64,000 nt of DNA. Source: a virus. This document shows positions 38,821 to 48,251 of this stretch, one piece after another. The stretch is taken from positions 1 to 64,000 of IMG/VR virus record IMGVR_UViG_3300025000_000061; one strand, given 5' to 3'. Both the position numbers and the translations under genes were made by a program. Each line of letters starts with the position of its first letter. The stretch's first letter is position 1. The notes under the pieces are model-generated. The model had not been told where the DNA came from. It searched no databases and saw nothing but the letters and a program-made list of their open reading frames with translations.

Positions 38821-39301
38821 GGAAAAGGAGAATAGATATGTTTAAGAAAAGAAAAGATGTTATTGTTTTGGATAAACATTTGACACGTTTAGAATCATCA
38901 CCTAAAGATAGTAGACCAAATTATAAATATTCAATCACAAATAATAAGCAAGTTGCGCCAAAATTAAAATGTTGTCCTATTTGTGGAGAATTAGAAGATA
39001 TTGCAACTAGATATGAGAGTTGGAGTATTGATTTTCATTGTAACAAATGTGATTTTAATGGTTCTGTAGATTATTTATGGATAGAAGAATGGGAACCTAA
39101 TGTGAAGGGTGAGGAAGTGCTGTTTTAGGTTGTTTTAGATTGTTTTAGGTGGAAATTAATTATAAAATGGTAAGAAAATATTAAATATTAGTAAAATAGT
39201 AAAATAAATATTCCATAATAAGGTATGAATAGGACATGTGTTGGACAGAATACTATTATAATATAAGAAACAAAATATATTATAATAGGAGAGTGAATTG
39301 A

Positions 39302-39724
39302 TTGAAAATATTACATAATGCTCAGTGTTATAAGCAAGATAGGGAGTTGGATTGGAGAGGGTGGTGTCCGAAGAGGGGTGAGATTTATTTGTGTCAATTG
39401 GGTAATGAAGGTCTTATATATTCAGAGATTAAGGGGTATCGTCCCGTATTGGTTGTGTCAAATAACATAGCAAACAAACATAGTCCAGTAGTTTCTATTA
39501 TACCATTAACTTCTAGTCAAATAAAAAATAATAATATGCCTGTTCATGTTAAAGTAGGAGTAGAAGAAGGGTTACGAACTTCGAGTTTAATTTGTTGTGA
39601 GCAGACTAAAACCGTATCTAAAAATCGTATGTTCATAAATGGTAGTTTAACTAGAATTTGTAAATTGAGTAGTAAATCGATGTGTAAAGTGGACGAGGCA
39701 ATACGAATACAATTTGGATTGTAA
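39302..39724 (+). CDS. mazF: MazF/PemK-family endoribonuclease
   Basis: PKRGEIY, SEIKGYRPVLVVSNNIANKHSPVVSIIPLTS, HV, S.ICCEQ.KTVSK.R. Confidence 0.92.
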   Translation: MKILHNAQCYKQDRELDWRGWCPKRGEIYLCQLGNEGLIYSEIKGYRPVLVVSNNIANKHSPVVSIIPLTSSQIKNNNMPVHVKVGVEEGLRTSSLICCEQTKTVSKNRMFINGSLTRICKLSSKSMCKVDEAIRIQFGL

Positions 39725-39873
39725 ATAAATTGGGAATAGATTATAAATATAAATTATAATATATATTATCATATATTATAAAAGGGTGTGATGTCTTTGA
39801 TTGTGTAAAAATAAATTAAAAAGTTATTGTGTTTAAATTGTATCTATTAAAAAATAATATAAAAGGAGGATAT

Positions 39874-41412
39874 ATGTTAGTAAAAAATCAAAAAGTTAAA
39901 ATGAATTGGAGTGGAAGTAATAGAAAACATTATGAATTAAAAGGATATCCTTTTACTAATTATAATGATGAATTTGAAGTTAAAATAGAGGATTTAGCAC
40001 CAAAAAGTCAAAAATATGTTTTGATTAGATGTGATTATTGTGGGATACCTTTTTTGAGAAGGTATGTAAATCATAATACAAGAAAAGAGAAATATGGTAT
40101 AAATGATAAAGATTGTTGTGATGATTGTAGAGCATATAAAAGAGAAGAAACATGTTTAGATAAATATGGTGTTAAAAACGCTGCTCAGACAGAAGAAATA
40201 CAAAATAAAATAAAAAGAACAATTAAAGAAAAATATGGAGTAGAATATATTTCTCAATCAGAAGAAATTAAAAACAAAAAGAAACAAACTTGTTTAGATA
40301 AATATGGAGTAGAATATACCTTACAAGTGCCAGAAATTAGAGAAATAATTACAGAAACTAATATAAATAAATATAGATGTGAAAATCCATTTCAAGCAGA
40401 AGAAATTAAAGAAAAAATAAGACAAGTCAATATGGATAAATATGGAGTTGAATATGCTTCCCAATCTTTAGAAGTGAAAGAAAAAACCAAACAAACTAAT
40501 TTAATAAAATATGGGAAAGAATACTACTTACAAACAGATGAATACAAAGAAAAGATTAAACAAAATAACCTAGACAAATACGGAGTAGAATATTATTCAC
40601 AAACAGAAGAATATAAAAACAAATATAAGCAAACCTGTCAAAATAAATATGGTGTTGATAATGTTTCACAAGTTCCAGAAATTGCAGAAAAAATTTCACA
40701 ATCACGTACAAAAGAATTTAAAGATTTGACAAATATAAAATTTAACCATTTAACAGTAATTTCTTTAGTACCTGATAAAACAAATAAGCACCATGATAGG
40801 TATTGGCTATGCGAATGTGATTGTGAAAATAAAACTAGAAAGGAAATTTCAGAAAATCATTTAGTTAGAGGAAATATTAAAAGTTGTGGGTGTATACGAA
40901 AAGAATCATTAATTGAAAGATGGGAAGGTAAAACAAAAAAGGATATATATCCTTATTACAAAGAAATATATTGTACATATGATAGTATGAGAAAAAGATG
41001 TTATAATGAAAAACATGATAATTATAAAAGATATGGTGGTAGAGGAATAATTATTTGTGATGAATGGTTGAATGATTTTATGAATTTTTATAATTGGGCA
41101 ATAAAAAACGATTATAAAGAAGGATTAACTATTGAAAGAATTGATTATGATGGCAATTATGAACCTGATAACTGTAAATGGGCAACATGGGAAGAACAAA
41201 GTTATAATAAATCAAATACGTTATACATAGAAGTAGACAATGAAATGAAAACAGTTAAACAATGGTCTGATGAAACAGGGATACCTCAACATATAATATA
41301 TCAAAGATATGCCAGATATAAAAGAAAAGATAAAAAAGAATTAGAGTTATTAACTAAAGAAAAATTCTTTAAACCAGTTAGACAACTCAAAAGAAAGGGT
41401 GATGTTGTCTGA
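39874..41412 (+). CDS. homing endonuclease-like protein: Zn ribbon, KYG repeats, HNH-type C-terminus
   Basis: About 8 repeats of T.L.KYGVEY..Q.EE.K.K; YWLCECDC, KSCGC, MRKRC, YGGRGI, TIERID..GNYEPDNCKWAT..EQ..N; start moved to 39874 behind AGGAGG. Confidence 0.85.
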   Translation: MLVKNQKVKMNWSGSNRKHYELKGYPFTNYNDEFEVKIEDLAPKSQKYVLIRCDYCGIPFLRRYVNHNTRKEKYGINDKDCCDDCRAYKREETCLDKYGVKNAAQTEEIQNKIKRTIKEKYGVEYISQSEEIKNKKKQTCLDKYGVEYTLQVPEIREIITETNINKYRCENPFQAEEIKEKIRQVNMDKYGVEYASQSLEVKEKTKQTNLIKYGKEYYLQTDEYKEKIKQNNLDKYGVEYYSQTEEYKNKYKQTCQNKYGVDNVSQVPEIAEKISQSRTKEFKDLTNIKFNHLTVISLVPDKTNKHHDRYWLCECDCENKTRKEISENHLVRGNIKSCGCIRKESLIERWEGKTKKDIYPYYKEIYCTYDSMRKRCYNEKHDNYKRYGGRGIIICDEWLNDFMNFYNWAIKNDYKEGLTIERIDYDGNYEPDNCKWATWEEQSYNKSNTLYIEVDNEMKTVKQWSDETGIPQHIIYQRYARYKRKDKKELELLTKEKFFKPVRQLKRKGDVV

Positions 41413-42008
41413 TTGAATTTATTATAGGAGCAATTTTATATGCAAAATATAAAAAGAAATATAAATTAAAATACATATTTAAATACCCATACATATTTGC
41501 AATAATACCACCTTTATTATGTGCCTTACTATACATATTTATAGAAATATCAGTTTGGAATCAATGGTATTGGTTTTTACCATATCAACATATAATAAAA
41601 ACTACAACTTTGTTAAGTTATATACCTTTACTTTATATATATAATCTTTATGAAAATGATAATCAAAAATACATAAATAATAATATAATGAATGTAGTTA
41701 CTTCACCTATGTTTAAAGCAGGATTCTGCTTATGGTTAGGTTCGACATTAAATAAAATAGTTATAAATGCTAACAATGGTATGCCAGTTTTCCCTAGTAA
41801 TACATACTGGACTGGTTACGCCAAACCAGATTTATTTAATGATGGTATACATATATTAGGTAATGCTTATACAAAATTAATTCCTTTGTCAGACTGGATT
41901 GATATTTTTTACTCGGTGATTTCCCCAGGAGATATTTTAATTCGTATGTATGTTTTTTTAATTATATATTATGCTATAAAATATTCTAATAAATTATTAA
42001 TAAAATAA
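41409..42008 (+). CDS. DUF5317-family membrane protein (likely CTG start)
   Basis: Frame open from 41403; LIEFIIGAILYAK..., LN..VI.ANNGMPV, H.L, L.D.I, SPGD motifs; SD AAAGGGTG. Confidence 0.8.
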   Translation: MIEFIIGAILYAKYKKKYKLKYIFKYPYIFAIIPPLLCALLYIFIEISVWNQWYWFLPYQHIIKTTTLLSYIPLLYIYNLYENDNQKYINNNIMNVVTSPMFKAGFCLWLGSTLNKIVINANNGMPVFPSNTYWTGYAKPDLFNDGIHILGNAYTKLIPLSDWIDIFYSVISPGDILIRMYVFLIIYYAIKYSNKLLIK

Positions 42009-42048
42009 TAAAATAAATGTTGACACTTAAACAACTCTATGGTAATAT
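42002..42048 (+). promoter_or_regulatory. sigmaA promoter for sensor-agrD with upstream motif variant
   Basis: AAAATAATAAAATAA 42002-42016; TTGACA 42020-17-TGnTAATAT. Confidence 0.7.
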
Positions 42049-42080
42049 ATAAATAGAAAATTACTAAGGGAGTTGGTTAT

Positions 42081-42881
42081 GTGGAACAAAATATTATAAA
42101 TGCGATATTGAATTTTTTCACAATTAGTTTGTTCGAGGAGTTAGGTATAGTTTTACTAATTTTAATATTTTTAAAAAGATTTGATTTACTTGATAAATAT
42201 ATGTGGAGATGGAATATAAAATGGATAATTTTGCCTACAATTTTAACGTCATTCTCCATAAATATATTTATATACATAATACCAAATTTTATATTAAAAT
42301 TTTTTGTTTCTATTATTGTTTTATACTTTTCTATAAATTATATCTTAATTAAAACAGACCCATTAGATGAAAAAATAAAATGGTATAAAATATTAATCAG
42401 TATAATATTAAGCATAGTTATGATAACAAGTGCAGAAATAATATATTTACCAATAATGCTTCAATATGTTAATCAACCAATAGAAATATTGAATAATAAT
42501 ATGTTATTAAAATTTATAGTAAGTTTGCCAGCAAAAACATTTCAAGTGTTATTGATTTATTTCATGTATAAAAAACATAATCAAAGTGAAAAATATGTTT
42601 CTAATATTTTAAAAGATAGAATATTATCTTTAGTTACAATTAGTTTTACTGGTTTAATATTGTTTGCTTTAACATGTATAGTAAAAATTGTAATTAGTTC
42701 AGAAATGATTGGTAAATATTCAATACAAACTCAAATGATGATTAGTGTATTAATAACAATTGTACCAACAATACTAATATTTCTTTATATCATACCAATT
42801 AATTACCTATTATCACGATTATTCAGAATACAACAGAGTTATCAACAAATGTATGATGATGTTGATGATACTGATGTATAG
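42081..42881 (+). CDS. multi-pass membrane protein resembling an AgrC sensor domain, lacking the kinase domain
   Basis: About 7 hydrophobic segments, immediately upstream of agrD, no H/N/G boxes. Confidence 0.6.
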   Translation: MEQNIINAILNFFTISLFEELGIVLLILIFLKRFDLLDKYMWRWNIKWIILPTILTSFSINIFIYIIPNFILKFFVSIIVLYFSINYILIKTDPLDEKIKWYKILISIILSIVMITSAEIIYLPIMLQYVNQPIEILNNNMLLKFIVSLPAKTFQVLLIYFMYKKHNQSEKYVSNILKDRILSLVTISFTGLILFALTCIVKIVISSEMIGKYSIQTQMMISVLITIVPTILIFLYIIPINYLLSRLFRIQQSYQQMYDDVDDTDV

Positions 42882-42913
42882 ATACAATGAATTGAAAGGA
42901 GGTGAAATTTATT

Positions 42914-43039
42914 ATGAAAAAATATACTCTTTTAGTCGTAGCTGGTTTTATTGCTTTAGTTGCTACTGCACTTACTAATTCCGTAGCATCTTTCATGGGA
43001 TTGAATCAACCTAAGAGTCCTTCTATGTTAGTAAAGTAA
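42914..43039 (+). CDS. agrD: cyclic lactone autoinducer peptide precursor (41 aa)
   Basis: MKKYTLLVVAGFIALVATALTNSVASFMGLNQPKSPSMLVK; SD AAAGGAGGTG; leader, S-X4 ring, xQPKxP tail. Confidence 0.9.
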   Translation: MKKYTLLVVAGFIALVATALTNSVASFMGLNQPKSPSMLVK

Positions 43040-43055
43040 TATGACTACATAGAAA

Positions 43056-43093
43056 ATTCTAAAGTAGAGTGTTTACTTCCTCTACTTTAGAAT
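43056..43093. terminator. 14-bp perfect stem-loop after agrD
   Basis: ATTCTAAAGTAGAG-N10-CTCTACTTTAGAAT. Confidence 0.75.
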
Positions 43094-43179
43094 AAAAAAA
43101 TAATATAAAAACTATTGTGTTCTATATTAATATATGGTAACATATAGACAAGAATATAATAAATAAGGAGTGGTAAAAA

Positions 43180-44055
43180 ATGATGTTATTTAATAAAAAA
43201 GAAATTCTTAAAAAAGATAATCTTGTGGATGATAAATTTAAAAAAGAGATGGCATTTTTAGTATTTAAAGCAAAAGGTAGACGAAATATTGAACAATTCG
43301 TAAAAGACATGAAAATGTTTGATCCTACACCAATCGTTAATTTAATAAATAAAAATTATAATGAATTACCTGATAGAAAATTATTAAGGAAAATAGCCGA
43401 TAATAGTATGGGAATGGTTAATTTTAGGATATTATATGATCTCTGTGGTTACTCCGAGAGAGATCCTGAAGAAGATCGTAGTTGGATAAAATGGGTTCCA
43501 AGATGGGCAGAAGTTTATATGTGTGATCTAGGCATAGGAGAGGATTGTATTCAAGGAGGGAAAAGAAATGTATTAATAATTCAAAATAATAAAGGCAACC
43601 AACACTCACCGAATGTATCTATATTGCCAATATCCAGTAAATGTAAATTTAACCATATGCATATACTATTAGAAAAAGAATTGGGTTTTGAAAGGGATAG
43701 TTACGCATTGTCAGAAATGCCATTAACTGTAAGTAAGAGGAGGTTCTTTTATAATACAGTACCTTATAAAATTACAACACTTTCAGATTTTAAAATGAAA
43801 GAAATACAGGTATGTCTTGAGAAACAATTTGGATTTTTACCACTTTATTTTGACGTAGAACATGCATTTGAACTAGTCAGACATATAAAAAATCTAGAAC
43901 AAAATATAAAAATCAAAAAATCACATAATTTAGTAGATATTATGGAAGATAAATTAAATGACCTAAAAGAATACTGTTCAAAATACAAAAAGAATTATCA
44001 ACATTACCTACAAGAATACGATAGAATCAATAACTATGGTATTCAAGCAATATAG
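43180..44055 (+). CDS. extended MazF/PemK protein with N-terminal Xre-HTH-like region and C-terminal helical extension
   Basis: KAKGRRNIEQF..P..KLLRKIA..LYDLCGY, then PRWAEVYMCDLG..IQGGKRNVLIIQNNKGNQHSPNVSILPISS. Confidence 0.8.
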   Translation: MMLFNKKEILKKDNLVDDKFKKEMAFLVFKAKGRRNIEQFVKDMKMFDPTPIVNLINKNYNELPDRKLLRKIADNSMGMVNFRILYDLCGYSERDPEEDRSWIKWVPRWAEVYMCDLGIGEDCIQGGKRNVLIIQNNKGNQHSPNVSILPISSKCKFNHMHILLEKELGFERDSYALSEMPLTVSKRRFFYNTVPYKITTLSDFKMKEIQVCLEKQFGFLPLYFDVEHAFELVRHIKNLEQNIKIKKSHNLVDIMEDKLNDLKEYCSKYKKNYQHYLQEYDRINNYGIQAI

Positions 44056-44126
44056 TGTAAATACTATATTTCTTCTATAAAATATTAATAATAAACAAAA
44101 AACAAATAAAAGGAGATGTTCAACAA

Positions 44127-44600
44127 ATGATTAACGAACACAAATTAAAGTATCTATGCAACAAATATGGTATTAATTATCAAGTATTTCATGCAACAGA
44201 TACCATATTAATAGATGCAAAATTAGATATATGGGAGGTGAAATATTATGAAGAAATACAAAAAAAATTAAATTTATTATACAATAAACAAAAAGAAATT
44301 CAATTGCAATTATTATCTCCTGTATTAGATGAACCAATTAAGAAAAAATTATTATATGAATATGAAAAAATAAACAAAAAAATAAAAGAAACAAAACCAT
44401 ATTATTTACTTCATAAAAATAAATCTGATAATAAATTTAGCAATCAGCACACACAAGGATGGAAGAAAAATTTATATCAAGTAATAACTTTTATATTAGC
44501 ACATAAAAGAGTTTTATATGGCATCCAATTAGGAAAGCCATATATACATAAGCACAATATTAAAATAAATAAGAAGGGAAAAGTATGTTTAAATACATAA
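44127..44600 (+). CDS. hypothetical protein overlapping the agrB start
   Basis: 157-aa ORF with SD. Confidence 0.7.
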   Translation: MINEHKLKYLCNKYGINYQVFHATDTILIDAKLDIWEVKYYEEIQKKLNLLYNKQKEIQLQLLSPVLDEPIKKKLLYEYEKINKKIKETKPYYLLHKNKSDNKFSNQHTQGWKKNLYQVITFILAHKRVLYGIQLGKPYIHKHNIKINKKGKVCLNT

Positions 44601-45271
44601 GATACCTATTAACATTCCGATATATCAAACTAATATCCTATATATCTGCTAAATATCTTCATAATAAAATACCTGTATTCCCACTAATAGATTCAAAAGT
44701 TTTATTAAAATTTTTACCAAAAAATATGTTAGATTTATTTGAAAATTTACATCAACAATCTAAATTAAAACCATATAAACTTAAATATGTTTATTACTAC
44801 GGTTGTCAAATCATCATAGGAGGCATTAACAAATTCCTACTCTTAATCACACTAGGCATCCTACTCAACATCCTCCCATATCTCATACTAACAACAATAT
44901 CATTCGTATCATTGCGAATTTGGTCTGGAGGGTTACATTTTGACTCTTACTCTAAGTGTGCCTACATTTCACTCTTATCATTTACAATCATGGCACTATT
45001 AGCAAAATACATCTACATATCAACCATACCTACTATATTAATATTCTTAATTGTCTTAATTTTAATTCTATTATATGCACCAGTAGAGCATCCCAACAGA
45101 CCAATAAAAAATAACGAAAAAGTTAAATTTAAATTAATTTCAATTTTCTCATTGTTAATATTACTATTAGTTATTTTATGCGTAAATAATATTATTATCT
45201 GTAATTCTATAGTGTTTGGAGTGCTATTAGCAGGTATAATTATGTTGCCTATTATAAACAAACTGAAATAG
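44585..45271 (+). CDS. agrB: AgrB-family autoinducer-processing peptidase
   Basis: YG.QII, LR..SGGLH....C (catalytic His/Cys), YAPVEHPNRPI, several TM segments. Confidence 0.93.
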   Translation: MFKYIRYLLTFRYIKLISYISAKYLHNKIPVFPLIDSKVLLKFLPKNMLDLFENLHQQSKLKPYKLKYVYYYGCQIIIGGINKFLLLITLGILLNILPYLILTTISFVSLRIWSGGLHFDSYSKCAYISLLSFTIMALLAKYIYISTIPTILIFLIVLILILLYAPVEHPNRPIKNNEKVKFKLISIFSLLILLLVILCVNNIIICNSIVFGVLLAGIIMLPIINKLK

Positions 45272-45388
45272 TTGTTAACGCAAGTATATAAAAAGTCGAA
45301 AAATGTCGCTAGGTAATTGTTGTCTATATGTGAAATTTTATGTAAAATAATATACAATAAAATTATTAACAAAATTCAAAAAAAACAC

Positions 45389-45435
45389 TTGTTCTTTTGT
45401 TATCAATGTATTATAATTGGACGAACAGGTGTTCT
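45389..45435 (+). promoter_or_regulatory. sigmaA promoter followed by a LexA (Cheo) box
   Basis: TTGTTC-17-TATAAT (45412-45417); CGAAC-AGGT-GTTCT 45422-45435. Confidence 0.75.
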
Positions 45436-45472
45436 ATAAATAATAACATAATAATATTAGGAGGAGATTGCA

Positions 45473-45703
45473 ACGAATAGTGAAAAAATTTATACAATCA
45501 AAGATGAAAAAGGTAATTTTGTTCATGGTGATGGTATTAGAAAGATCGGCAAAGAATATTATTATTTGCCATATGAAAGTTTAAAAGATGGCTGTATTGT
45601 TTATACTAATAAAATAAGAGTAGAGAAGGCTCTGAATAATCTTGAAATACATAATCGATTAGGTGAGTTAGGACATAAATTTATTATTGAACTTGTCTCT
45701 TAA
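45473..45703 (+). CDS. small unannotated protein (about 76 aa, ACG or ATT start)
   Basis: AGGAGG, then an open frame TNSEKIYTIKDEKGNF...FIIELVS*. Confidence 0.55.
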   Translation, partial: TNSEKIYTIKDEKGNFVHGDGIRKIGKEYYYLPYESLKDGCIVYTNKIRVEKALNNLEIHNRLGELGHKFIIELVS

Positions 45704-45732
45704 TAAGATAAAAATAATAACTGACTTTCCTA

Positions 45733-45761
45733 TTGACATAGTATGAAGATACATATATAAT
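45733..45761 (+). promoter_or_regulatory. sigmaA promoter of the yopQ/mrpR-like operon
   Basis: TTGACA-17-TATAAT; degenerate motif AAGATACATATATAA 45746-45760. Confidence 0.8.
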
Positions 45762-45809
45762 AAGTATTAATGATTATTATATATAATTTAAAATGAGAGG
45801 TGAAGAATT

Positions 45810-47183
45810 ATGCTTAGTATAAAAAATGCTATGTTAATAGGAGAGTTAAAACCACTAATATTAAAGTATGGCAACAATTCAAAAATCTATAACATTATAC
45901 AAGAGGAATTTATTAAAAAAGGGTTATCTGGTAGCAATGCAAAAAACTTACTAACAGGTAAAATTGCTTTAGAAACATTAGATATTACCAATCAAAAAGA
46001 ATTATTCTTATTATTTTCTTTTACAGATGCTATGAAGAAAGCACTAAGTACATTTGATGAAATGTCCAAGGACACTTTTGGCATGGAAGAGGAATATATT
46101 AAATTAAAATTAGAATATTATTTTACACCCATAGAGATTGAAGAATTTACAGAATTCGTTATAGAGAAAGAAGAAGTAAGAAAATATCCGTATAGATTAA
46201 GAAATATGTTAAAAGTAGGAGAAAATCATTATATAGGGATTATAACTTCTAAAGAATTAGCCGAAATAGATTCTACTAATGATATAGTATATGACTTTGC
46301 AACACAAAGAGATCCTAAAATTGATATATTTGGAATGAGACGTATTAATGTTGACACAAGAAAAATTGATGCAATTGAAAAAAGTTTACTTGCTGGTGAA
46401 TATTTTTCAGATGAAATCAAGTTGAATGTTAAGAATGATGGAGAAGATCATATCGAATTCGATTCAAAGGACGGAATTTATGGTGATCTTATTATTCATT
46501 CAGGAACAATAACTTGTTTTGATGGCTATCACAGAAAAACTGCCAATTCTAAAGCGCAAAATAAAAATAATGAATTGCAATTTAACTGGAAGTTAGGTGT
46601 CACCAATTATCCAGAACCTAAAGCAAGAAAATTTATGACACAGATTAATAAACAAAAACCTATTAAACGTGAATACGTTAAAAATATTGATGAAACAAAA
46701 AATGAAAATACAATTGTCAATAATATTATTAATAATTCTAATTCTGAATTTGCCGATAAAATTAAAGAATCTGATGCAGAATTAAAATTTAGTGGTTTAA
46801 CTAAAAAATCTATATTATCTCTAGCAATAGAAGAACAATATGAAGAATTTTTAAACACTAAAATTTATAATATTGAAATCTCTAATTGGATAGTAGACTT
46901 TACAAATTATTTAATGGGACTATATCCTAATGAATTTTTATTTAATGTAGACAAAACTAAAAAAGTAAGTTATATTAATAATAGAAATATGTTCATAGGT
47001 TATATTGCACTTTCAAGAAAGTTATATAAGCAAGATGATTGGAAGAGTAAGACCGTTAAAATAATGAACAGTATTGATTTTAGCATTGAAAATAGCATAT
47101 GGAAGAATATTCGTATTGATGATAATATTTTAAATAAAACATCAAGAAAAGAATTATATAATCTATTTATAAAGGAGGTGTAA
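45810..47183 (+). CDS. DGxHR (DndB/ParB-like) domain protein, SPbeta YopQ-like
   Basis: Y...TQR, I.LN, FDGYHR, F.QINKQKP motifs; 457 aa; precedes an integrase-like gene. Confidence 0.7.
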   Translation: MLSIKNAMLIGELKPLILKYGNNSKIYNIIQEEFIKKGLSGSNAKNLLTGKIALETLDITNQKELFLLFSFTDAMKKALSTFDEMSKDTFGMEEEYIKLKLEYYFTPIEIEEFTEFVIEKEEVRKYPYRLRNMLKVGENHYIGIITSKELAEIDSTNDIVYDFATQRDPKIDIFGMRRINVDTRKIDAIEKSLLAGEYFSDEIKLNVKNDGEDHIEFDSKDGIYGDLIIHSGTITCFDGYHRKTANSKAQNKNNELQFNWKLGVTNYPEPKARKFMTQINKQKPIKREYVKNIDETKNENTIVNNIINNSNSEFADKIKESDAELKFSGLTKKSILSLAIEEQYEEFLNTKIYNIEISNWIVDFTNYLMGLYPNEFLFNVDKTKKVSYINNRNMFIGYIALSRKLYKQDDWKSKTVKIMNSIDFSIENSIWKNIRIDDNILNKTSRKELYNLFIKEV

Positions 47184-47186
47184 ATA

Positions 47187-48251
47187 ATGGTAAAGCATAA
47201 AAATGGTAAGATTAACTTAGCAGAGAGAGTATTTAAACATGATAGAGATGTTAAAGAAGAATTTTTAAAAGATATTAAACCATCAACTGCAAAAACTATA
47301 AGAAGCATACTTTTTAAAGTAGATGATTATGAAGATCGAATCGGTAAAAGTATATATGATTTTACCTTTGAAGAGCGTGATGATTTCTTTATTTCTCAGT
47401 TTTGTAATAAAAGTAAGGGCGTTATTAATACAACAAGATCATATTTAGTAAAGTATATTAACCATTGTATTGATAACAACCTTGTTAGACATATGGAGAA
47501 TAGGTTTGATTTAATTTCTAAAGATGATATTGATAAATATATTAATGATACTGCAATGCAAATGAAATATCTATCTAGAGAAGAAATTAAAGAAGCACAG
47601 GATAAATTAGTTAATAATTGTGATAAGTTAATTTTGCAATTAATACCTTTGTCTGTCAGAGGGCGTACAGAATTGAATAATACTAATGAAGAATTAATTA
47701 ATTTGAGAGTAAAAGATGCTGAAGAATCTTATGAAACAGGTATTTTGCATGTCTGGAATAATGACGGTGATAGAAGACCTGTGAAAATTGATGAAGAAAC
47801 AATAGAATTATTGAAAAAGACAATAAATGATGATAGTTATATTATTAATAACGGAAGCATTTATGATAAAAAAGGGAGAATACTTGGCAGGGGTATCGGA
47901 GAAAAATGTTTTCCTTTAAATGATACTGGTTATGTATTTAGAACTGCTGGTAAGAATAAAAAAGGAAAAGTTAAAACTAATTTTTTTGGTTCTAGGATGA
48001 GAATAATGAAAACCTGGACGATGAATCCATTTATCACCGTAACGAATTTGTATTATTCTGGAATTATCGATTATGCTATGCAATTAAGAAAAGAAAAAGG
48101 TACAGAATTAGATAATCATGATTATATTAAAATAATTGATAAGTTTTCTTATGGTAAACCACAAATACTATCAAACAAAGAATTAGATTGGAGTGTACCA
48201 ATATCAAAAGTAAAATCTATGGTGGAAGATTATATTAATAGAAAATTATAA
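47187..48251 (+). CDS. tyrosine-recombinase-fold protein without catalytic HxxR, MrpR/YopR-like lytic-cycle repressor
   Basis: KEEFL..., E....K.IYDF, YLSREE, DKLIL..VRG..EELINLRV.D; TNLYYSG in place of HxLRHS. Confidence 0.75.
   Translation: MVKHKNGKINLAERVFKHDRDVKEEFLKDIKPSTAKTIRSILFKVDDYEDRIGKSIYDFTFEERDDFFISQFCNKSKGVINTTRSYLVKYINHCIDNNLVRHMENRFDLISKDDIDKYINDTAMQMKYLSREEIKEAQDKLVNNCDKLILQLIPLSVRGRTELNNTNEELINLRVKDAEESYETGILHVWNNDGDRRPVKIDEETIELLKKTINDDSYIINNGSIYDKKGRILGRGIGEKCFPLNDTGYVFRTAGKNKKGKVKTNFFGSRMRIMKTWTMNPFITVTNLYYSGIIDYAMQLRKEKGTELDNHDYIKIIDKFSYGKPQILSNKELDWSVPISKVKSMVEDYINRKL

Follow-up and report, generated by a model that had tools for sequence, protein, structure and literature searches.

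In staphylococci, the hypervariable region of the agr locus spans agrB, agrD and the sensor part of agrC, and many mutually distinct types of signal and receptor exist. Peptide communication among phages has so far been described almost only for the arbitrium system of Bacillus phages, and agr genes carried by a phage have been seen once before, in phiCDHM1, without a known role. Autoinducing peptides (AIPs) with a serine in the ring and phage-borne agrD and agrB are already known. Here we consider an open reading frame (ORF) of 41 amino acids (aa) at 42914-43039 on the plus strand of a viral genome, which an earlier note, made from the letters alone, took to be a hidden agrD gene whose product closes into a serine lactone. 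The IMG/VR virus record (IMGVR_UViG_3300025000_000061) has 151,782 bp and a CheckV completeness of 82%, and the stretch analysed, referred to throughout as the window, is its first 64 kb. We take the source to be an SPbeta-like phage with a large genome (at least 152 kb), whose host is a low-GC member of the Bacillota that has not been cultured. The ORF is a genuine, conserved gene, and comparison with its relatives makes it quite probable that it encodes a functional AgrD-type precursor in which Ser26 is the ring residue. A whole family of large environmental phages appears to carry this Agr-type peptide signal, in many specificity types, beside a membrane protein named here Mem.

The agrD reading frame and its predicted ring

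The features at the centre of the analysis are the following.
42081-42881, plus strand: Mem, a 266-aa membrane protein with seven transmembrane (TM) helices, candidate peptide receptor
42895-42904, plus strand: Shine-Dalgarno sequence AAAGGAGGTG, 9 nt before the agrD ATG
42914-43039, plus strand: agrD, 41-aa precursor with leader, ring and follower architecture
43046-43051, plus strand: TACATA (UACAUA in RNA), between the agrD stop codon and the hairpin
43056-43093, plus strand: 3' hairpin of 14+1 bp followed by an A-rich run, recognized by folding and conservation

Translation of 42914-43039 gives MKKYTLLVVAGFIALVATALTNSVASFMGLNQPKSPSMLVK and then a stop codon. The strong Shine-Dalgarno sequence, the hydrophobic leader running into SVA-SFMGL-NQPKSP and the downstream 14-bp hairpin that the earlier note had described are all present. 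The three parts of an AgrD precursor can be read from the peptide: a leader M1-A25 (42914-42988), a core with the predicted ring S26-F-M-G-L30 (42989-43003) and N31 (43004-43006), and a follower QPKSPSMLVK, Q32-K41 (43007-43036), after which the stop codon follows.

Homologues of the peptide were collected from several sources: six were already in the protein collection, 34 were found by profile search, and a metagenome scan with Mem as the query added 49 more loci. The loci are located on viral contigs (L003 and L004) and metagenome contigs (L005-L012 and L018-L021), together with the 49 loci of the scan (L024-L072). The ORF, its Shine-Dalgarno sequence and its place directly after a membrane protein of ~266 aa recur in all of the ~60 related loci that reach that far. 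The homologous ORFs are 37-47 aa long and lie 15-40 nt after the membrane-protein gene, and the ribosome-binding site AAAGGAGG is kept before the peptide ORF in all loci checked. One apparent exception, L050 (1346-1465), is explained by a follower in which HQSK replaces the otherwise invariant HQPK. Comparison of the window with L005 shows purifying selection in the agrD frame, with a proportion of synonymous differences (pS) of 0.43 and of non-synonymous differences (pN) of 0.08 (pN/pS ~0.2), and codon comparison demonstrates that the follower QPKxPSMLVK is unchanged through synonymous changes. Since the frame, the ribosome-binding site and the hairpin are kept in ~60 loci, with pN/pS of ~0.2, the ORF is to be regarded as a gene. 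In L067, L069 and L070 the membrane-protein frame is cut to ~96-152 aa, and these may be pseudogenes or assembly errors.

The hairpin downstream of agrD folds with a free energy of -17.7 kcal/mol (z = -4.9), and none of 200 shuffled sequences folds as well. When folded separately, 37 of 37 distinct downstream sequences contain a hairpin, of 11-18 bp and with 29 different 5' arms, so that pairing is kept while the sequence changes. RNAalifold gave no consensus on a MAFFT alignment of the hairpins because the arms are out of register. No T-run follows the hairpin in the window and a terminator scan did not call it; it is not a canonical intrinsic terminator. Ahead of the hairpin, an exact UACAUA occurs within 25 nt of the agrD stop codon in 36 of the 37 distinct loci (L003-L070), and CTACATA is invariant in an alignment of 20 sequences; as background, even the 5-mer TACAT turns up in only ~3.6% of 25-nt segments of the window. 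Bacillota MazF has been reported to cleave at UACAUA (bioRxiv 10.64898/2026.08.06.743204), and cleavage by MazF at 43046-43051 would detach the hairpin from the Mem-agrD transcript. The 6.5-kb module at 39300-45800 holds 16 of the 56 plus-strand TACATA sites of the window, six of them in the frame of an upstream DUF5317 gene (41472-41848); the expectation from base composition is ~41 sites for the whole 64 kb.

Membership of the window peptide in AgrD rests on transitive homology, because its own score is below the cut-off of the AgrD model TIGR04223 and relatives pass. The phage homologues score 11.6-21.9 bits on this model, and one (L004, 21.9 bits) passes the cut-off of 19. Searching with a profile built from the phage peptides brings up bacterial peptides with E-values of 1e-10 to 1e-3, and these score 39-44 bits. 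For one of the bacterial relatives, P0183, the ring SFVTF is followed by YQPKVPKALQK, and the gene is placed between agrB and a gene with Response_reg and LytTR domains, beside an AgrC-like kinase, which is the canonical agrC-like/agrB/agrD/agrA arrangement. Along with the matching architecture and motif, these homologues bear out the identification as AgrD.

The family has a common layout, in which a leader with MKK and a hydrophobic stretch leads to [V/I]-[A/N]-S, four hypervariable residues and [N/H/Y]-Q-P-K-x-P; the Q, P, K and P of the follower are invariant in 28 aligned peptides. Every family member examined has Ser or Cys at position -5 from [N/H/Y]QPK. In the phage clade, with the follower PSMLVK, this residue is always Ser, and there are at least 27 ring types, examples of which are SFMGL, SFMAL, SFSVF, SAAWL, SASWY, SAWTF, SHAFL, SIAWF and SVIVF. 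In bacterial relatives, with the follower PK(A/C)LxK, it is mostly Cys (for example, ACGTLL or ACIFWF before YQPK) and in a few Ser. The proposal that serine is the ring residue agrees with this distribution. A further suggestion, that the signal may be specific to phages, is plausible, as all PSMLVK peptides found come from this phage-type synteny and the clade has this diversity of rings. The window peptide is without any Cys, so a thiolactone is impossible, and Ser26 is its sole conserved nucleophile. The AIP of Clostridium perfringens has a register, [CLWFT] and then H, that matches the phage family (PMC12312760; PMC7300355). That the ring is exactly SFMGL is predicted with moderate confidence.

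Mem, AgrB and the exchange of cassettes

The genes and sites surrounding Mem and agrD are as follows.
41610-42008 (open frame 41403-42008), plus strand: DUF5317 membrane protein (PF17248, E 3.9e-15)
42020-42048, plus strand: promoter-like site TTGACA-17-TAATAT with an upstream TG, a 10/12 match, between the DUF5317 and Mem genes
43180-44055, plus strand: 291-aa fusion with a MazF/PemK domain at residues 111-216 (PF02452, E 1.4e-14; phrog_1936, MazF-like)
44127-44600, plus strand: 157-aa protein, second gene between agrD and agrB, no family match
44585-45271, plus strand: agrB, membrane cysteine-peptidase/cyclase (PF04647, 126.9 bits, E 7e-37)

Covariation was assessed as distance correlations (Mantel) across 34 unique phage-type loci. 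The ring tracks Mem (r=0.83), also when the downstream MazF fusion is partialled out (0.82, p=2e-4); the correlation of the ring with the MazF fusion, the next gene, is 0.22, and with the AgrB core it is 0.07, which is not significant. The agrD leader varies with Mem (r=0.70), and the ring with DUF5317 (r=0.54). Individual pairs of loci illustrate the pattern. For example, the MazF fusions of L018 and L029 differ by 4% and their Mem proteins by 73%, with the rings SHAFL and SFLSF, and L004 and L054 have the same ring, SAAWL, and Mem proteins that are 98% identical, with MazF fusions that differ by 20%. Sliding DNA identity rises in a step from ~50% to ~100% where the ring gives way to the follower, within agrD, and DUF5317, Mem and the leader and ring of agrD are thus a swapped, hypervariable cassette. 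The follower, the hairpin, the MazF fusion and AgrB are the constant frame around it. The association of ring and Mem suggests groups of signal and receptor specificity, for which such a pattern is expected; the covariation of signal and sensor that the earlier note proposed to look for is present, with a contribution from linkage.

Mem has no family in Pfam, NCBIfam or PHROG, and 10 of its relatives have no Pfam family. A profile search of 1.84e9 proteins returned 168 relatives; none of the 150 listed exceeds 326 aa or reaches kinase length, and the nearest cluster in the ESM Atlas is 76% viral. An AlphaFold2 model built on 119 sequences has seven helices, with a predicted local distance difference test score (pLDDT) of 93.6 and a predicted template-modelling score (pTM) of 0.89; a first model, on six sequences, had a pLDDT of 52.6 and was discarded. 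The positive-inside rule would place the N-terminus outside and the acidic C-terminal tail inside, and the protein ends ~25 residues after TM7 (QQMYDDVDDTDV). Its best fold neighbour in the Atlas is a 452-aa cluster named 'sensor kinase SpoOB-type', with HATPase_c_5 in 98% of its members. Comparison by hhalign of the Mem family with the membrane ORF that forms the N-terminal part of the AgrC-like kinase in the canonical agr locus L022 gave a probability of 97.4% (E 1e-11, 145 columns), and the two share the motifs SIPEE, E/D-x-x-Y/F-x-P and S/F-x-P. A Foldseek search of Mem against the Protein Data Bank (PDB) found nothing at E<=0.001, and a profile search of PDB sequences gave only matches to TM segments of gamma-aminobutyric acid (GABA) receptors, which were judged to be chance. 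The kinase in L022 (2170-3532) is present as two overlapping ORFs in different frames, a membrane part of 166 aa and an ORF of 291 aa that has an H-box and HATPase_c_5 along with two TM helices; either the assembly contains a frameshift or the sensor is genuinely split.

Because Mem has neither a DHp domain nor HATPase_c_5, it is not an AgrC, and the whole 151.8-kb record contains no HATPase_c_5 (PF14501), LytTR or Response_reg domain. Mem is probably a kinase-less relative of AgrC-type sensor domains, and forms an unnamed, stand-alone family. Conservation is highest in cytoplasmic loop 1 (RFDLLDxYxW, identity 0.86), and variation is greatest from TM4 to loop 6. A role as receptor of the AgrD peptide is about evenly balanced, leaning slightly in its favour. 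The statement that agrD sits next to the sensor holds for the adjacency; the 'sensor' is this probable relative of AgrC sensor domains, for which the receptor role is a prediction.

The gene for AgrB is located 1.5 kb downstream of agrD on the same strand, and is the only agrB in the record. As the earlier note had it, two genes intervene: the MazF fusion, which is outside the hypervariable cassette, and the 157-aa gene, which L004 also has and which other loci have in shorter form or lack. The canonical spot directly downstream of agrB contains no AgrD-like ORF. The PF04647 score is far above the cut-off of 23 and the catalytic H-x6-C is present; R111, G115, G116, H118 and C125 are invariant in 25 homologues, and we take H118 and C125 to be equivalent to H77 and C84 of Staphylococcus aureus. 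An AgrB was found in 28 of 34 unique related loci, and the six without a match include contigs that end before the agrB position. A single scan of the genomes of 185,579 species with the phage AgrB returned only two distant relatives, with 33-40% identity. Prediction of an AgrB-AgrD complex gave a score of 0.02, which counts neither for nor against binding. The divergence of AgrB independently of the ring fits an enzyme that reads the invariant follower.

The pairing of Mem with AgrD is old, as even Mem-family members with as little as ~20% identity each have an AgrD-like ORF after them. Two Bacillota metagenome-assembled genomes (MAGs) have seven and three Mem-family genes, three of them in tandem (L081, G001:C2:58000-70000, and L082-L086). 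Nearly all of these copies are followed by an AgrD-like ORF (C-X4-YQPKxPK, with one S-X4), usually without an adjoining agrB, and they are an unannotated, multi-copy bacterial cassette of receptor-like protein and AgrD. On a plasmid-like contig with Rep_1 and MobA/MobL (L023, 3865-6126), a LytTR-only protein of 111 aa and two small ORFs are found with a 315-aa Mem-family member and a Ser-type AgrD, and no agrB is present within 10 kb. This arrangement hints that kinase-less Mem proteins may work with stand-alone LytTR regulators.

Proposed mechanism and alternative explanations

The best explanation overall is a genuine agrD of an SPbeta-like phage working by the mechanism below, which we regard as probable; AgrB processing, the chemistry and size of the ring, the receptor role and the output pathway are steps that we infer. 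The hydrophobic leader of 25 residues would place the AgrD precursor in the membrane, where the phage AgrB (His118/Cys125) would recognize the follower (N)QPKSPSMLVK, cut it off and keep the peptide bound as an acyl-enzyme. The Ser26 hydroxyl would then resolve this intermediate into a macrolactone, most likely S-F-M-G-L, and removal of the leader after SVA (Ala25) would leave a ring without an N-terminal tail. Signal peptidase I favours small residues at positions -1 and -3, a rule that cleavage after SVA25 fits. The tail-less ring may rearrange through an O-to-N acyl shift to an all-amide cyclopeptide, as described for clostridial AIPs. The signal would be read by the upstream-encoded Mem, with Mem and agrD expressed from one transcription unit (promoter 42020-42048, hairpin 43056-43093). 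Mem and the ring would swap between phages as one specificity cassette, with AgrB and the follower constant.

Several observations weigh against this explanation. The window peptide scores 14.6 bits on TIGR04223, below the cut-off of 19, and has no match to the Pfam AgrD family (PF05931). The ring could be of six residues, including Asn31, given that six-membered clostridial AIPs exist, and the AgrB/FsrB enzymes shown to form a serine lactone are few. The evidence on the mature peptide is from sequence. Location of agrD away from agrB is an unusual arrangement. Mem has no DHp or ATPase domain and no output domain, its fold match in the Atlas is borderline (template-modelling score 0.48), and by HMMER its profile does not significantly match any of seven HATPase_c_5 kinases from the two MAGs; a search that started from the sensor ORF of L022 uncovered no related full-length kinases, which is weak evidence. 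The covariation is confounded because physical linkage alone would give a correlation. DUF5317, upstream, also varies with Mem (r=0.81), and ring differences of one residue accompany ~39% divergence in Mem. Linkage and this degree of divergence point to an exchange of cassettes under diversification rather than to co-evolution of single residues.

Could the ORF encode some other small secreted or membrane peptide, with an N-terminus like a signal peptide and a chance resemblance to AgrD? The sub-threshold score and missing Pfam match would allow it, and the leader, with KK, a hydrophobic core and SVA, does resemble a Sec signal peptide, but we consider it very improbable in view of the transitive homology to the 39-44-bit peptides, the S/C-X4-[NHY]QPKxP register, the presence of AgrB in most loci and the relative in a canonical agrCBDA locus. 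A more substantial question is whether the follower of a real AgrD is cleaved without a serine ester ring being formed, giving a linear peptide, or with another ring size, such as S-F-M-G-L-N. Six-membered AIPs are known from Clostridium acetobutylicum and as Rc-AIP1 (CWFWSY), the residue after the ring (N/H/Y) varies as the ring residues do, and in general chemistry oxygen esters form less readily than thioesters. Even so, Ser/Cys is strictly invariant at one position while the rest of the core varies, the two interchange there between relatives, and natural Ser-lactone AIPs have been documented (PMC12312760); taken together, these make the alternative unlikely.

Two further explanations accept the AgrD and concern its partners. 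Mem may be a factor for maturation, export or immunity (for example, a leader peptidase like MroQ of S. aureus), with an AgrC/VirS-type kinase of the host as the sensor. This would be in keeping with the missing output domain and with a phage record without kinase, receiver or LytTR domain; the covariation of leader and Mem (r=0.70) is as expected of an enzyme that recognizes the leader, glutamates E19 and E119 within the TM helices of Mem are conserved, and S. aureus needs a second membrane protease (PMC12312760). It is, in our view, rather doubtful, as hhalign ties Mem to the sensor part of an AgrC-like kinase, its top fold neighbour is a sensor-kinase cluster, no protease motif or family match is found in Mem, and its best-conserved segment is on the cytoplasmic side, as would suit an output interface more than an active site outside the cell. 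Alternatively, the phage could use a real AgrD to speak to, or jam, the Agr quorum sensing of its host. Such a role has already been proposed for the agr genes of phiCDHM1 (PMC3901668), the phage has no response regulator, and bacterial relatives with the same type of follower ([Y]QPKxPK) exist. Manipulation of the host would, however, have to account for at least 27 ring types among close phages that swap with a phage-encoded receptor-like protein, for a PSMLVK follower so far seen only within the phage-type synteny, and for a genome scan with the phage AgrB that found only distant relatives, and we judge it to be improbable.

Gene setting and comparison with known systems

Genes in the window are small and nearly all on the plus strand, and several match PHROG families. 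Base composition is strand-asymmetric (window 1-64000: A 42.8%, T 32.4%, G 16.9%, C 7.8%; GC 24.7%). No phage record was matched by the region in megablast or by the AgrB, AgrD and Mem proteins in tblastn (none at E<=1e-5 for AgrB), in searches that may not list near-identical records. The flanks of the module are marked by the following genes.
39302-39724, plus strand: stand-alone MazF-like gene (PF02452, E 2.8e-24), left edge of the conserved module
45810-47183, plus strand: YopQ-like gene (457 aa; tblastn), directly after the agr module
47187-48251, plus strand: YopR/MrpR-like gene (PF22822 MrpR_N_CB, E 5.9e-14; phrog_5830)

Synteny of the left-hand MazF-like gene is kept in L003, L005, L018 and L019. 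Between it and DUF5317, a 527-aa gene with DUF7487 repeats (39829-41412) looks like a variable insert, since in related phages DUF4379-type proteins of various sizes (452-676 aa) replace it. The DUF5317 frame is open from 41403 and its homologues have ~200-215 aa, yet the first ATG/GTG/TTG is at 41610 (132 aa), and the gene may have an unusual start codon or a shortened N-terminus. Most related loci also have the motif TTGACA...TGnTAATAT ahead of their membrane-protein gene, and 42020-42048 is likely to be the start of the Mem-agrD transcript.

The agr3 genes of the Clostridioides difficile phage phiCDHM1 share with this locus a phage-borne AgrD and AgrB, the lack of a phage response regulator and the P-x-x-P motif in the follower (PMC3901668). 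They differ in having a full-length AgrC histidine kinase (453 aa) beside agrB and agrD, and in their resemblance to host genes (PMC3901668); the locus described here has a kinase-less partner of 266 aa, an agrD 1.5 kb from agrB, a predicted Ser ring and a hypervariable cassette throughout the family. Serine AIPs of bacteria include RIPT[STGFF] of Staphylococcus pseudintermedius, gelatinase biosynthesis-activating pheromone (GBAP) of Enterococcus faecalis, NSA[SSWVA] listed for C. difficile Agr2 (primer) and the AIP of Hungateiclostridium thermocellum (PMC12312760, PMC8251862). As predicted for the phage, Ser takes the place of the ring Cys in these peptides; in most of them the ring has five residues and immediately precedes the follower, and the clostridial ones have no N-terminal tail. 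They are encoded in agr/fsr loci with a kinase and a regulator, whereas the phage product is predicted from genes. Rearrangement of a tail-less Ser lactone to the lactam is unresolved even for H. thermocellum (PMC8251862).

As in the staphylococcal agr groups, signal core and sensor-like domain diversify together, as a cassette between conserved flanks. Staphylococcal AgrB is itself hypervariable in part and shows substrate specificity (PMC12312760), whereas the phage AgrB is not tied to the ring. Within the incomplete coverage of our literature search, there was no description of a kinase-less AgrC-like protein with AgrD, of its hypervariable cassettes or of an agr module in SPbeta-like phages, and the kinase-less receptor/AgrD cassette at the arbitrium position of SPbeta appears to be undescribed. 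If the proposed mechanism is true, it would provide a test case for how an AgrC-type sensor signals without a kinase, and a natural library of matched pairs of ring and receptor for the study of AIP recognition.

The closest parallel in position is the arbitrium system (aimR-aimP-aimX) of SPbeta and phi3T, which also has a gene for a secreted peptide and a receptor gene just upstream of yopQ/yopR (MrpR). By tblastn, the YopQ-like protein of the window has matches only in SPbeta-family and Geobacillus E3 phages (phi3T_96, yopQ, E 1e-20), and in phi3T (L087, 65778-80773) aimR-aimP-aimX share the strand of yopQ and precede it by 2.4-3.5 kb, before yopP-yopQ-yopR. Arbitrium acts through the MazF of the host (PMC10769878), and the phage agr module carries two MazF-domain genes. 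The module in the arbitrium position, with these two genes, makes a role in lysis-lysogeny communication an attractive hypothesis, although by this analogy we would hold it only tentatively that the system governs lysis-lysogeny. Equally tentative is the fuller proposal that AgrD and Mem are a phage-to-phage channel that replaces arbitrium in SPbeta-like phages of anaerobic Bacillota. In that event, dozens of specificity cassettes would provide every phage lineage with its own private channel, Mem would pass on the signal without a phosphorylation step, for instance through binding or release of the MazF-domain proteins of the phage, and the UACAUA 3' of agrD would let MazF feed back on production of the signal.

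The likeness to arbitrium is one of position and logic, as domain searches of the agr module found no TPR-type AimR and no AimP domain. AimP is a linear hexapeptide and its receptor is a cytoplasmic TPR protein; here, a cyclic peptide processed by AgrB and a candidate receptor in the membrane are predicted. If the peptide is made and sensed as predicted, it would represent a second, chemically different phage 'language'.

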